From a virus (Duplodnaviria > Caudoviricetes): DNA of 29,063 nucleotides. The notes beneath the pieces are model-generated. The model had not been told where the DNA came from and made no database searches. It worked only from the letters and a program-made list of their open reading frames with translations. Positions within the stretch are counted from its first letter, which is position 1. Each line of letters begins with the position of its first letter. A program made the position numbers and the translations under genes. The stretch lies in the IMG/VR virus record IMGVR_UViG_3300016472_000190, positions 1 to 29,063 of that record. One strand, given 5' to 3'. This document shows, one piece after another, positions 4,529 to 24,428 of the stretch.

Positions 4529-4671
4529 TGCCACTATTCCAAGGCGATAGCCAAACCATCATCAGCATGAACATCCGCAAGCTAATCAGCGAGGGATATT
4601 CACCTGAACAAGCGGCAGCGATAGCCTACGCCGAAGCTGAAAAGTATAAACAAAAGCGAGGTAAGCGATGA
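4528..4671 (+). CDS. Small phage protein, 47 aa (absent from ORF track)
   Basis: MPLFQGDSQTIISMNIRKLISEGYSPEQAAAIAYAEAEKYKQKRGKR; TAATG and ATGA overlaps at both ends. Confidence 0.8.
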   Translation: MPLFQGDSQTIISMNIRKLISEGYSPEQAAAIAYAEAEKYKQKRGKR

Positions 4672-5903
4672 ACGTGCAATTAATAAACATATCCGAGCTA
4701 ACGGTTAACCCGAACAATCCGCGCATCATTAAGGATGAAAAGTTCGATAAGCTGGTGCAATCGATTAAGGAGTTCCCCGAAATGCTAAAGTACCGCCCGA
4801 TAGTGGTGGATGAGAATAACGTGATTTTAGGCGGTAATATGCGTTTTAAGGCATGCAAAGCGGCAAAGCTGAAGCAAGTGCATGTCATGAAGGCAAACGA
4901 GCTCACAGAGGCTCAAAAGCGCGAATTTATAATTAAGGACAATGTAAGCGGCGGCGAATGGGATTGGGCGTTGCTTCAAACCGAATGGGACACCGAGCAG
5001 CTCGATGCTTGGGGTGTGGATGTGCCCGACTTCGAACGCGAGCAGGAACTCGAAGCAGTTGAGGACGATTACGAGATGCCCGATGAAATACAAACCGACA
5101 TCGTGCTGGGCGACCTATTCGAGATAGGCGATCATCGTTTGCTTTGTGGGGATAGTACGAATGCGGATGATGTGGCAAGGTTGATGGATCGAGGTAAAGC
5201 TATTTTAATGGTTACAGATCCGCCTTATGGGGTTAATTATGATGCGACTTGGAGAGCTGATGCTTTAGGAGATAAATTGATAGGAAAACCAAGAGAAGGT
5301 TTAGTGTCAAATGATGATCGTGCTGATTGGACTGAGGTTTGGGCATTATTTGAAGGCGATATTGCTTATGTGTGGCACGCTTCAAAATTTGCTGATGTTG
5401 TAATGAAAAGTTTGAGAGATTCTGGATTCGAAATAAAACAGCAAATAATTTGGAATAAATCTGTGATGGTTTTAGGAAGGGCAGATTATCATTTTAAACA
5501 CGAACCATGCTGGTATGCAGTAAGAAAAGGCAAGAACCACAACTGGCAAGGAAATAGAAAATTAACAACCGTTTGGGATGCAGCTCCGCCTACACATATT
5601 ATGAGTGGAAGCAAAGAAGAAAAAACAAGCCACCCCACACAAAAAGCATCGATTTGTATGTCTATTCCTATACAAAACAAGTCAAAAATAGGGGATGGAG
5701 TATATGATCCATTTCTTGGTTCAGGAACCACAATGGTAGCCGCCCACCAACTTAAACGCAAAAGCTACGGCATGGAACTTGACCCGAAGTATTGCCAAGT
5801 GATTATTGACCGCATGATAAAGCTCGACCCTACGCTTACAATCAAGCGCAATGGGCAGCCGTATAAAACAGACGAAATACAGACGTATGGCATTTCCGCA
5901 TGA
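4668..5903 (+). CDS. ParB-like N-terminal domain fused to beta-class N6A/N4C DNA methyltransferase
   Basis: NPNNPR...RPIVVD...GGNMR ParB motif; TDPPY catalytic motif precedes DPFLGSGTT SAM motif; HPTQK. Confidence 0.9.
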   Translation: MNVQLINISELTVNPNNPRIIKDEKFDKLVQSIKEFPEMLKYRPIVVDENNVILGGNMRFKACKAAKLKQVHVMKANELTEAQKREFIIKDNVSGGEWDWALLQTEWDTEQLDAWGVDVPDFEREQELEAVEDDYEMPDEIQTDIVLGDLFEIGDHRLLCGDSTNADDVARLMDRGKAILMVTDPPYGVNYDATWRADALGDKLIGKPREGLVSNDDRADWTEVWALFEGDIAYVWHASKFADVVMKSLRDSGFEIKQQIIWNKSVMVLGRADYHFKHEPCWYAVRKGKNHNWQGNRKLTTVWDAAPPTHIMSGSKEEKTSHPTQKASICMSIPIQNKSKIGDGVYDPFLGSGTTMVAAHQLKRKSYGMELDPKYCQVIIDRMIKLDPTLTIKRNGQPYKTDEIQTYGISA

Positions 5904-21813: not shown

Positions 21814-21870
21814 TATATTGCGGCTCGTTCTTTATTCAGTCATACCAATAGTTTAGGCAAAAAATGAAAG

Positions 21871-21896
21871 AGCTTGCAGCAATGCAGGCTTTTTTT
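21871..21896 (+). terminator. Intrinsic terminator
   Basis: AGCTTGCA-GCAA-TGCAGGCT stem-loop followed by a T tract. Confidence 0.75.
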
Positions 21897-21924
21897 GTGC
21901 CACATAAAAATATTTTTGAAAAAG

Positions 21925-21955
21925 TTTGCAGTTTCAAAATAAGGATGTATATTTG
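21925..21955 (+). promoter_or_regulatory. Full Bacteroidetes promoter (-33/-7)
   Basis: TTTG (21925-21928), 19-nt spacer, TATATTTG (21948-21955). Confidence 0.8.
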
Positions 21956-21978
21956 TGTCAGATTTAAAAACAAACACA

Positions 21979-22224
21979 ATGGCACATAGAATTAACGAAA
22001 GAAATATTGGCAATAGCACATTGGAAGCTACACCAAAAAAACGCAGTCAAAAACTAACTGCTGATGAATTAGAAACTATTGCAATGATAGTTTCTAAGGT
22101 TTATGATGCAATGGAAGAAGATGAAATCACAGGCACACATACAGATGGTGGTAGAATTACATTATCACTAACTGGTGAACAAATGTTTGATTTATTTGAA
22201 GCAAAAAGAAAATTAAATGGATAA
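21979..22224 (+). CDS. Hypothetical accessory (moron-like) protein; start moved to ATG 21979
   Basis: AT-rich, own promoter, A-rich initiation region. Confidence 0.7.
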   Translation: MAHRINERNIGNSTLEATPKKRSQKLTADELETIAMIVSKVYDAMEEDEITGTHTDGGRITLSLTGEQMFDLFEAKRKLNG

Positions 22225-22258
22225 ACTAATCAAAACTTTCGGAGTGGTCGGTAAAATA

Positions 22259-22401
22259 GCAGCTAACGTTAAGGTGCTTTGTGCTGTGTGGGATTTAATG
22301 CACTACACTTTCAACCTTGCACTAAAGCTGATAAAAGGCAAAAACGCTGAATTTACCACGTCCGCCCACATAGCACAAAACACGTGTTATAGGCAGTAGG
22401 G
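22259..22401. repeat. attC-like imperfect palindrome
   Basis: GCAGCTAAC (22259-22267) ... 19-bp arms 22274-22292/22365-22383 (17/19 complementary) ... GTTATAGGC (22386-22394). Confidence 0.65.
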
Positions 22402-23234
22402 ATTTTTAGCACAAATGTTTAATCGAAGCACTAAATAAAAAAAAGAAAAAATGCGAAGCGAGGGAATAAAAAATATTGATTGTTTGGAACTACTTAAACA
22501 AGTAACAGACGAAACTATTGACTTAACGATTACATCACCACCTTATAATTTAGGGGTGAAGCACCATACAGGTAATAACGTATTTGAAGCGTATGACGAA
22601 TACATTGACGATATGCCCGAAGATGAATACCAACAGCAACAAATAAAGGTGCTGAATGAGATTTATAGGGCAACAAAACAAGGCGGAAGCATAATGTATA
22701 ACCACAAAAACCGAATTAAGAACGGAAAGCAAATAACGCCATATGAGTGGCTTTTAAAAACTGAATGGACTTTAAAGCAGGAGGTAGTTTGGTTTAATGG
22801 CTCACAAAACTTTGATAAGTGCAGATTTTATCCAATGACTGAAAGGATTTACTGGCTATCAAAAGGCACGAATACTAATTTTACAAATGCTATTAACCAA
22901 CACGATTTGATAAAAGACACAGCCGAAGGAACAGACAAAGAACATAAAAGGGCTTTCCCTGTAAAATTGGCTCAAAGATTTATTATTTGTTTTCCTGATG
23001 CCGAATTGATATTTGACCCTTATATTGGAAGCGGAACAACTGCAATAGCGGCTATAAGGGAAAACAGAAAGTATTTAGGTGCTGAACTATCAAAGAAGTA
23101 TTTTGAATTAGCAAACAAACGAATAGAATATGAAACAGCACAAACCAAATTGTTTTAAAAGTGCGGTGGGGCATTTTTTATTTTTTTCTTCCACAAATGT
23201 TGAAACGAAGAACGTCTGCCCTATTGCCTATAAC
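22268..23234. mobile_element. Integron-cassette-like module carrying a DNA methyltransferase
   Basis: Hairpin followed by 16-bp IRs GTTATAGGCAGTAGGG (22386-22401) / CCCTATTGCCTATAAC (23219-23234) enclosing one AT-rich gene; TAAC at both junctions. Confidence 0.65.
22451..23158 (+). CDS. Beta-class N4C/N6A DNA methyltransferase (orphan)
   Basis: DCLELL, ITSPPYN catalytic motif, HKRAFP, DPYIGSGTT SAM motif. Confidence 0.9.
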   Translation: MRSEGIKNIDCLELLKQVTDETIDLTITSPPYNLGVKHHTGNNVFEAYDEYIDDMPEDEYQQQQIKVLNEIYRATKQGGSIMYNHKNRIKNGKQITPYEWLLKTEWTLKQEVVWFNGSQNFDKCRFYPMTERIYWLSKGTNTNFTNAINQHDLIKDTAEGTDKEHKRAFPVKLAQRFIICFPDAELIFDPYIGSGTTAIAAIRENRKYLGAELSKKYFELANKRIEYETAQTKLF

Positions 23235-23251
23235 TTTCTTATACCCGCTAA

Positions 23252-23281
23252 TTTGTAGCATATTATTTTTTATTATCTTTG
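23252..23281 (+). promoter_or_regulatory. Promoter for the major capsid gene
   Basis: TTTG (23252-23255), 18-nt spacer, TATCTTTG (23274-23281). Confidence 0.75.
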
Positions 23282-23378: not shown

Positions 23379-24428
23379 ATGTCTATATCTCGTATTCTTT
23401 CAGAATGCCCGAATGTGCAGATGAGCCTTTCGGAGTTATTCATCGAAGTAGGGCAACGCGAGCAGCTTCCATTTTTGGAGTTTCTCTTATCGCCTGAAAA
23501 CACTAAACTAATCCGCACCGAGGTTGCACCCGGTGGTGGTAAATTAAAAACCGTTCAAGCTCGTTGGATTCAGCGTTTGCCTGAGACCGAAGTTGAAACT
23601 GAAGGTGACATCCTTACTTGTACTTCAGAGAACACTTACGGCGATTCAACAACCACGTACACGGTTGACACAACAGATACGTACATCGCATCTCAATTAA
23701 TTAACGCTGCTGACATTGCTCGCCATTGTCAAGAGAACAGCCGTTACGTGCTTGAGTCGGTAATGCGTTTGATGGATGTGCTCGACCGTAAGGTTGCTTC
23801 TGCTGCCGCTGTTCAGGCTGTTGCTGACATCGGCAAGTGGGGCACTGATGTTGAAGGCTTCTACACCGTAACTGGTGACTGCTTGGAGATTGCAACAATG
23901 AACGGCGCAACCGAGCCTAATCCATTCGCAATCGCTGACATCCAGCAAGCAACTCGCATGGCTAACTATCCTGGCGCACCTGTTGCGTTTGGCGGTGCTG
24001 CAATGCAGCGTTATGCTAACGCGATGGCTGCTGGCTGTTGCTCGCAGTATGGCTTGGACTTGTTGGCAATCACACAGCAGAACGGCTTCGGCTTCGCTTA
24101 CGATGCTCGTTTAGCCGCTGCGCAAGGAGACCAGACCTCAGCGTTGGTAACAACTGCCGGAGCAATCCAGTGGTTATCATTCAATTTGGCTGATTGGAAT
24201 CAGGGCATCACGCCTGTTGCTGGTAGCAATTACTCAAAGACCTTGGTGTTCACACCGGCTGGAGTACCTTGCGACCTTACAATGAAGGATGACTGCGGTA
24301 ACTTGTCAATCGTGTTAACCACAACTGGTAAGATTGTTACTCTTCCAACTGACATTTACGAGGCTGGCGATAAGTATGCTGGCGTTAACTACGTTAACTG
24401 CGTGAGCATCGTAAACCCGGCCCCGTAA
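23379..24428 (+). CDS. Major capsid protein (start moved to ATG 23379)
   Basis: About 350 aa, own promoter and terminator, after scaffold and before neck genes. Confidence 0.75.
   Translation: MSISRILSECPNVQMSLSELFIEVGQREQLPFLEFLLSPENTKLIRTEVAPGGGKLKTVQARWIQRLPETEVETEGDILTCTSENTYGDSTTTYTVDTTDTYIASQLINAADIARHCQENSRYVLESVMRLMDVLDRKVASAAAVQAVADIGKWGTDVEGFYTVTGDCLEIATMNGATEPNPFAIADIQQATRMANYPGAPVAFGGAAMQRYANAMAAGCCSQYGLDLLAITQQNGFGFAYDARLAAAQGDQTSALVTTAGAIQWLSFNLADWNQGITPVAGSNYSKTLVFTPAGVPCDLTMKDDCGNLSIVLTTTGKIVTLPTDIYEAGDKYAGVNYVNCVSIVNPAP

Follow-up and report, generated by a model that had tools for sequence, protein, structure and literature searches.

A repeat-bearing methyltransferase cassette on a phage contig, assigned to an integron-like system of Bacteroidota and their phages

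A methylase cassette on a phage contig

A DNA methylase cassette at 22268-23234 of the window (the whole stretch of DNA analysed here, 29,063 nt) very probably belongs to an integron-like system of Bacteroidota and their phages, and cassettes are exchanged at the phage site that it occupies. The record is a 29-kb virus contig, 83% complete, with Pfam matches for a terminase and two methyltransferases; its capsid, portal and scaffold labels come from gene order, not from Pfam hits. The element forms a low-GC patch (35-39% versus ~48%). When 80 related phage loci, fetched via the gene at 23379, were compared by blastn, the flanks of 21897..23265 (an insert given no strand) proved to be directly joined in empty relatives such as locus L001. 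This insert lies between a terminator T-run and the region upstream of the capsid gene. A strict pattern found the empty site in at least 15 of the 80 loci; five others carry between one and four cassettes, in differing sets, all finishing in the same right-hand end site, and the remainder were too diverged or too short for the patterns used.

The right half of the target, an attI-like site at 23235..23265 (+ strand), fits AAC-N6-(A/C)T-N3-CG and is common to the ends of five other filled arrays. On the left, the flank at 22254..22267 (+ strand) ends in TAAC and in locus L006 precedes a different hairpin; in contigs from two other sequencing runs it exits at 22267-22270 into differing sequences. 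From this divergence of the flank, together with the exchange of cassettes at the phage site, the cassette is delimited as 22268-23234 with an AAC cut on both sides, the crossovers falling between 22267 and 22268 and between 23234 and 23235. A contig from another study covers the same hairpin and arm with 13 differences. In one run, the summed contig depth exceeded 1,000 on the frame arms (see below) versus 2-6 on the gene. Neither a circle junction nor an empty target was seen in the contigs of four sequencing runs; two cargo-skipping joints in one run, with a short side of only 25-28 nt, were not counted.

On the + strand, the cassette opens with an attC-like hairpin core of 118 nt (22268..22385), composed of a 6-nt spacer, a 19-bp stem found by stem detection (22274-22292 with 22365-22383), a 72-nt terminal loop of four 18/19-nt units (22293..22364) and a 2-nt spacer. 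Next comes an R'-like box (22386..22401), the 5' strand of a 16-bp outer stem that pairs, with one G·T, with the R''-like box at the far end of the cassette (23219..23234), which ends in TAAC. Between these boxes, again on the + strand, lie the frame 5' arm with units 1 and 2 (22402..22437), the A-rich 5' strand of an inner stem, which holds the start codon (22438..22454), the cargo, an N4/N6 DNA methyltransferase of 235 aa (22451..23158; PF01555, E 1.3e-30), the T-rich 3' strand of the inner stem (23171..23187, pairing with the 5' strand at 16 of 17 nt) and the frame 3' arm with units 3 and 4 (23188..23218). Both arms match the frames of relatives. G-rich motifs flank the cargo just within the inner stem, both on the same strand (22451-22461 and ~23160-23170), as they do in other framed bodies; in one frame type they are exact direct repeats, and the 5' copy resembles the 5' stem of the hairpin.

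The first-pass annotation, made from the letters alone, had described end motifs shared by the hairpin interior (22290-22303 and 22358-22367) and the gene-bearing segment (22399-22412 and 23212-23221). All four are present at these positions, the opening GGG and closing CCC being terminal pairs of the stem, not loop. Its recurring GCAC-like tetramers are there as well: GCAC at 22300 and 22319, GCAA at 22338 and CCAC at 22356 in the hairpin (spacings 19, 19 and 18), and GCAC at 22409 and 22428 and CCAC and GAAC at 23191 and 23210 in the arms (spacing 19 each). The direct repeat of 22 nt that it drew between the two arms (22410-22431 and 23192-23213) agrees at 19/22 positions, a value that none of 200 first-order Markov resamples of 22290-23221 reached.

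The left part of the insert holds an 81-aa ORF (21979..22224, + strand; 89 aa if read from the GTG at 21955), for which there was no Pfam match. L006 has the same flanks around this part of the insert, and the ORF may possibly be the body of a cassette whose hairpin was lost. The ends of the insert suggest that the array fragment and the target site arrived together as a block, via slippage or microhomology. T-runs (21870-21896 and 23259-23271) bound the 1.37-kb insert, and empty relatives have one single run. Unrelated, hairpin-less inserts occupy the same intergenic site in other loci (L021:2350-3000, L055:3000-3390, L041:3370-3900), two of them with a similar promoter-like leader. Elsewhere on the contig, five to six tandem 11-nt repeats (1245-1311; 11 is not a multiple of three) lie inside a 235-aa ORF at 959-1666, and the second methyltransferase (4668-5903), outside any cassette, is fused to a ParB N-terminal domain. 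The segment 22260-22470 gave no blastn match among 50,697 cultured-phage records.

The hairpin family and its loop units

Homologous hairpins were collected with a pattern on the hairpin 5' arm, which gave at least 128 bacterial loci, and with a similar pattern that gave at least 123 phage loci, to which 12 more were added from the unit motif itself. Both 5'-arm patterns leave the loop and the length free but favour one arm subtype. The stem detector returned 620 hits, some of them false positives; 484 have the spacer asymmetry of the family, and 326 are distinct. Named hosts include Flavobacterium, Chryseobacterium, Pedobacter and Cytophagales, and short-core arrays also occur in Desulfitobacterium and Desulfosporosinus. 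The modal core is exactly 118 nt, as in the analysed cassette (45/123 bacterial and 36/202 phage hairpins), and the bacterial hairpins keep this length in several Bacteroidota groups while many loop positions drift; other core classes lie near 40, 63, 80 and 181 nt. Taken alone, the analysed hairpin folds no better than shuffles (z ~ -0.7), so the case for it is made by the family and not by its folding energy. The element region and 11 array loci had no relevant Rfam match, and the Flavo-1 motif, considered as a candidate, found no support there.

Across these homologues, in bacteria and phages, the unit array is conserved at fixed offsets; the first-pass annotation had proposed a test of such conservation. 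GCAC-like words start at offsets 32/33, 51, 69/70 and 88 of 118-nt hairpins, and at 32, 51, 70 and 88 in the analysed loop. Loop autocorrelation peaks at lags 18, 19 and 37 in bacteria and phages alike, with z values of 7.5-11.5 at lag 18/19 and of 23 and 16 at lag 37. Moreover, 41 of 50 framed relatives have GCAG as their first arm unit, which lacks one base there and gives an 18-nt spacing. The spacing that had been put at 19 nt is thus conserved, but the period is really 18/19 nt and is strongest as a double unit of 37 nt.

The unit consensus is approximately AAGCACAAAA(C/G)TT(C/G)AA, and the four units of the analysed loop score 12.2, 14.6, 5.9 and 9.6 bits. Since the unit matrix was trained on bacterial loops, the 58/66 bacterial loops above the cut-off are a circular result; among phage loops (hairpins of 114-122 nt), 144/211 exceed the 95th percentile of shuffles and 67/211 fail it. 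The exact motif has 24 genome-wide matches in five genomes, 13 of them in detected hairpins and 4 more, by eye, in decayed or longer hairpins; the backwards motif, as a control, has 4. The motif is therefore largely confined to these sites (17/24 inside), and a global regulator site was rejected on the 7/24 exact matches outside them versus the 4 control hits. As marks of the family, the end motifs have limited reach: the opening motif recurs in 24/66 bacterial and 66/211 phage loops, the closing motif in 10 and 8. Clear units are absent from hairpins of 40-66 nt and from the Desulfitobacterium arrays, so the array is not needed for mobility. A one-off local duplication is ruled out by the unit array in hairpins and frames across the family. 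Two Firmicute arrays, L134 (Desulfitobacterium) and L159 (Desulfosporosinus), have the same build with 61-65-nt hairpins; L134 combines 11 detected hairpins with a related recombinase and a GC-rich motif directly repeated at both ends of several bodies.

The strand of the gene differs between the two samples. Its orientation is classical in 52/58 bacterial cases (4 reversed, 2 unclear) and opposite in 245/273 phage cases (5 classical, 23 unclear), the analysed cassette being of the latter kind. Among 176 long-hairpin phage cassettes, 91 have a reading frame that begins within the hairpin loop and runs through the 3' stem and the crossover box (e.g., L004:1030-1170 and L052:3262-3380), and the site thus encodes the N terminus of the protein.

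A frame around the gene

The first-pass annotation had seen the same array in a second, gene-bearing arm. The same four units are indeed found there, split 2+2, but an arm array is confined to 19 of 273 phage bodies, in which the units of both arms score above the highest mid-gene control. Of 58 bacterial bodies, five also pass the numeric arm cut-off, four from GC-rich Desulfitobacterium and one marginal; by eye, none of these five has the 2+2 layout. A search with the analysed 3' arm as query gave 93 loci and 96 hits, its own included, 0/96 of which fall in a loop, and yielded 66 complete frames, 52 of them distinct. At 70% identity the cargos fall into 29 clusters and at 35% into 12, a few of these clusters arising from miscalled ORFs; most cargos are N4/N6 methyltransferases, and nearly all are DNA-modification genes. 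Of five cargo N termini that were tested, two matched Mom and one MT-A70, and the others had weak matches to PAPS reductase and to methyltransferase.

The first 51 nt of the body are a median 94% (minimum 90%) identical in 49 other framed bodies, the 5' arm not having been selected for; the last 46 nt are a median 100% (minimum 93%) identical in the same 49, partly from selection on the motif. This frame, 94-100% identical, surrounds cargos that are 24-35% identical or unrelated. Its inner stem comes in three types, which agree between both ends in 47 of 48 classifiable frames, and the sequence after the frame end comprises 32 distinct hairpins and 38 distinct non-hairpin sequences. The analysed 5' arm finds its best match among family loops at the loop start and the 3' arm at several periodic offsets, so the frame probably arose, judging by these alignments, when a gene bounded by a stem split a hairpin loop.

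Hairpin and frame do not travel as one piece. Four methyltransferase bodies that are 96.6-98.3% identical stand behind four different hairpins, of 118, 107, 82 and 58 nt, and a short hairpin precedes 33/40 framed bodies versus 63/254 unframed ones; the pairing of a 118-nt hairpin with a frame, as in the analysed cassette, is a minority state. Because hairpin and arm reassort, the fixed two-armed unit initially proposed has to be given up, and the two-armed picture holds for the framed subclass and for the likely folded circle, not for the family as a whole. An occasional crossover at the GTT end would suffice for hairpin swapping.

Strand bias and loop sizes

Stems were scored without regard to strand, and G·T and A·C pairs were then counted on the analysed element's + strand. 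The G·T:A·C ratio is 61:10 in the outer stem and 147:98 in the hairpin stem of bacteria, and 274:22 and 520:212, respectively, in phages. This bias is fixed to one strand while the coding strand flips between bacteria and phages, so the fold is selected on a DNA strand; mRNA structure was rejected for the same reason. The G·T bias points to folded single-stranded DNA.

Terminal loops fall into size classes with medians of 34 nt (n=65), 66-70 nt (n=280) and 135-136 nt (n=15); the analysed cassette has its 72-nt loop and an internal loop of 36+31 nt. An exact inner inverted repeat of at least 11 nt is present in 67/240 phage bodies versus 27/1163 non-array segments, with 15/240 for direct repeats and 3/240 for reverse-only repeats as controls, and in 2/56 bacterial bodies. 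Among these 67, 44 enclose an internal loop of comparable size (offset sum 85-115; 10.9 expected). Counted in the 44 are 32 of the 53 bodies without the motif, some of which have both copies in coding sequence. By eye, the inner inverted repeat of the L082, L240 and L303 methyltransferase cassettes is coding at both ends, and there is a compensating base difference between L082 and L240. SSB, a protein that binds single-stranded DNA, is not known to be sequence-specific, so it would fit the loop sizes and not the conserved letters. E. coli SSB is described as occluding 17, 35, 56 or 65 nt and as acting on attC hairpins (PMC5737091); the match of these footprints to the loop classes is suggestive only.

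Recombinase and target site

Tyrosine recombinases adjoin several bacterial arrays and one phage array, and five bacterial arrays end near such a gene. A query with the phage enzyme returned 80 loci, of which three were dropped, the gene being at the locus edge. At the remaining 77, hairpins lie directly upstream and in the same direction in 65 and downstream in 5; 9 of the 12 loci without hairpins have less than 500 nt of upstream sequence. The phage array usually ends 43-115 nt (mostly 52-56) before the integrase match. The first-pass annotation had proposed looking for co-occurring protein families, and apart from the integrase none was found: no other gene family occurs in more than 11 of the 80 phage integrase loci, and a conserved partner gene beside the integrase was rejected. 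Many phage contigs (L353-L432), some larger than 200 kb, carry a complete platform, that is, array, conserved end site and the gene of a 267-aa recombinase on one strand, with the end site usually 52-56 nt ahead of the gene. The closest integrase relatives in cultured phages are 32-40% identical.

Five array-linked recombinases score 149-216 bits versus the TIGR02249 cut-off of 265, and match that profile in two stretches separated by a gap at about profile positions 178-241, the place of the IntI insertion. Some bacterial integrases (L162:8886-9150, L121, L134) are extended at the N terminus by ~90 residues, for which Pfam gave no match; the phage enzyme lacks this extension. As the binder of the units, this extension was rejected: it is present in Desulfitobacterium, whose loops lack units, and absent from the phage enzyme, and it had no Pfam match.

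After the last AAC, the pattern N6-(A/C)T-N3-CG is shared by five bacterial arrays (by eye, at the integrase-side end) and the analysed site, and its N3-YG form by 18 of 38 non-hairpin frame targets. Hairpins hold the same box three bases further in (61/90 bacterial). There was no PF00589 match on this 83%-complete contig or on five relatives (two complete), so the recombinase would be supplied in trans.

A model for the repeats and its alternatives

We tentatively favour a reading in which the repeats are a track for a protein wrapping the folded cassette's single-stranded loops of ~70 bases. The + strand would be excised as a single-stranded circle that folds into a rod. On one side of the crossover, the rod would present the 19-bp stem with its 72-nt loop; on the other, the 16-bp stem, the 36+31-nt internal loop and a 17-bp inner stem that would pin off the gene. 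A wrapping protein, either an SSB-like tetramer or a dedicated factor, would keep each loop compact, and a recombinase acting in trans, from the host or a co-infecting phage, would recombine the folded site with a double-stranded, degenerate target. Candidate partner genes were sought at the 80 phage integrase loci, and no binding protein came to light. A sequence-specific binder explains the conserved letters, not the motif-free inner stems. A further step, which we consider rather unlikely, would make the four-unit loop the core of a cassette-building machine, in which an incoming gene splits a fixed-size, protein-wrapped loop. On the folded single strand the gene ends would be copied so as to give a perfect inner inverted repeat, and phages could thus turn arbitrary genes into cassettes, to be plugged into degenerate targets by a recombinase lacking the I2 helix.

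The repeats may instead have no binding partner. Tandem duplication in an ancestral loop, with frames that persist as homology arms for cargo swap or gene conversion, would account for the larger autocorrelation at lag 37 than at lag 18/19, for a 118-nt class that is approximately the 80-nt class plus one double unit of 37/38 nt, for a near-identical frame around diverged or unrelated cargos and for the reassortment of hairpins among bodies. Plain descent, however, does not predict that the 118-nt length is kept amid loop drift, nor that motif-free inner repeats, some of them in coding sequence, obey the loop-size rule, and we hold this reading to be somewhat unlikely.

We think it improbable that the units are expression signals of the cargo (promoter or translation start) copied to the frame when the hairpin is too short. 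It is true that a phage reading frame starts in the hairpin in 91/176 long-hairpin cassettes versus 1/67 short ones, that framed bodies tend to follow short hairpins and that framed cargos are nearly all DNA-modification genes. Yet it is in bacterial loops that the array is conserved best; there the gene is on the other strand and only 2/40 have such an ORF, and the frame carries the array 3' of the gene too. Nor does the promoter fit. The Bacteroidetes -7 box is TAnnTTTG, which is rare in the loops on either strand, and the box-breaking variant dominates (53:9 and 88:33), which disfavours this promoter as the identity of the unit. No more probable is the view that the units are accessory sites of the recombinase on double-stranded DNA, serving as a topological filter in the manner of attI1 DR1/DR2. 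Direct repeats beside the core are described as helping attI1 x attC recombination (PMC8946536), and the unit motif is mostly restricted to these sites; against this, the unit consensus is unlike the R or L boxes of the family, 37 nt is ~3.5 helical turns and the step from 80 to 118 nt is not a whole number of turns, and the wobble bias favours the folded single strand.

Significance and comparison with known systems

Integrons are regarded as uncommon in Bacteroidota, and the ability to recombine single-stranded cassettes is ascribed to the I2 helix. The present family appears to be a widespread cassette system of Bacteroidota and their phages that sits beside a recombinase without the I2 insertion and shuttles anti-restriction genes between phages. 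Its repeat array and loop-size steps give a first concrete handle on a possible substitute for I2 and bulged bases. Both the single frame around many unrelated genes and the perfect inverted repeats at fixed distance, even within coding sequence, are candidate footprints of cassette making. If the cassette-building reading were true, a route to cassette formation would become visible, a subject still listed as open in integron reviews (PMC8618304). The literature that was searched, with few subscription papers covered, held no description of the cassette family, the loop array or the frame.

The system resembles the integron, above all the sedentary chromosomal kind, whose attC sites are long and uniform, but misses the IntI insertion, the bulged bases and, in phages, the gene orientation, and to this extent the suggestion that the element is distinct from classical integrons was borne out. 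Shared with integrons are tandem cassettes, TAAC...GTTA hairpins, complementary ends and one preferred folded strand; exchange at an AAC/GTT core within inverted core boxes; a tyrosine recombinase at one array end; and, in bacteria, one gene per cassette. Also shared are an unpaired, asymmetric central spacer, whose 5' side is longer by 3-4 nt in almost every detected hairpin (a feature partly built into the orientation filter), and an attI-type platform beside the integrase, whose conserved non-hairpin end site would function as attI. In contrast, the array-linked recombinases fall below the IntI cut-off and lack the I2-helix insertion, and none is encoded on this contig. The best 16-bp stem has no single-base bulge in 68/78 bacterial and 246/314 phage hairpins, nor in the analysed hairpin. 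Cassette genes are reversed in phage arrays and classical in bacterial arrays, and the fixed loop size classes, here with a four-unit array, set the family further apart. IntegronFinder 2 is cited for one complete integron in Bacteroidetes proper (PMC9024848).

CALINs of virulent phages share attC-like sites, methyltransferase cargo, a Bacteroidota host and the lack of an integrase in cis; the analysed DNA has one hairpin and no PF00589 match on its 83%-complete contig. Qi et al. (2023) describe phage CALINs with methyltransferase cassettes, including Polaribacter phage P12002L (PMC9892861), whose sites were detected by classical attC models and assayed with IntI1. In the portions consulted, that report describes neither a cognate phage integrase nor repeats in the loops, nor frames that recur around different genes. 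In IMEX such as the CTX phage, folded single-stranded DNA is recombined by XerC/D, enzymes without an I2 helix (PMC7790495). Here too, a recombinase without I2 would act on a folded single strand, whereas IMEX use host XerCD at dif and in this system a dedicated recombinase gene adjoins multi-cassette arrays and the frame ends in 38 distinct non-hairpin targets with a weak consensus. With attI1, whose DR1/DR2 are described as short direct repeats beside the crossover core that aid recombination (PMC8946536), the likeness is in the form of short direct repeats: those of attI1 lie in a double-stranded platform site, and the units described here lie four to a loop in the cassette's own loops and are unlike the core boxes.
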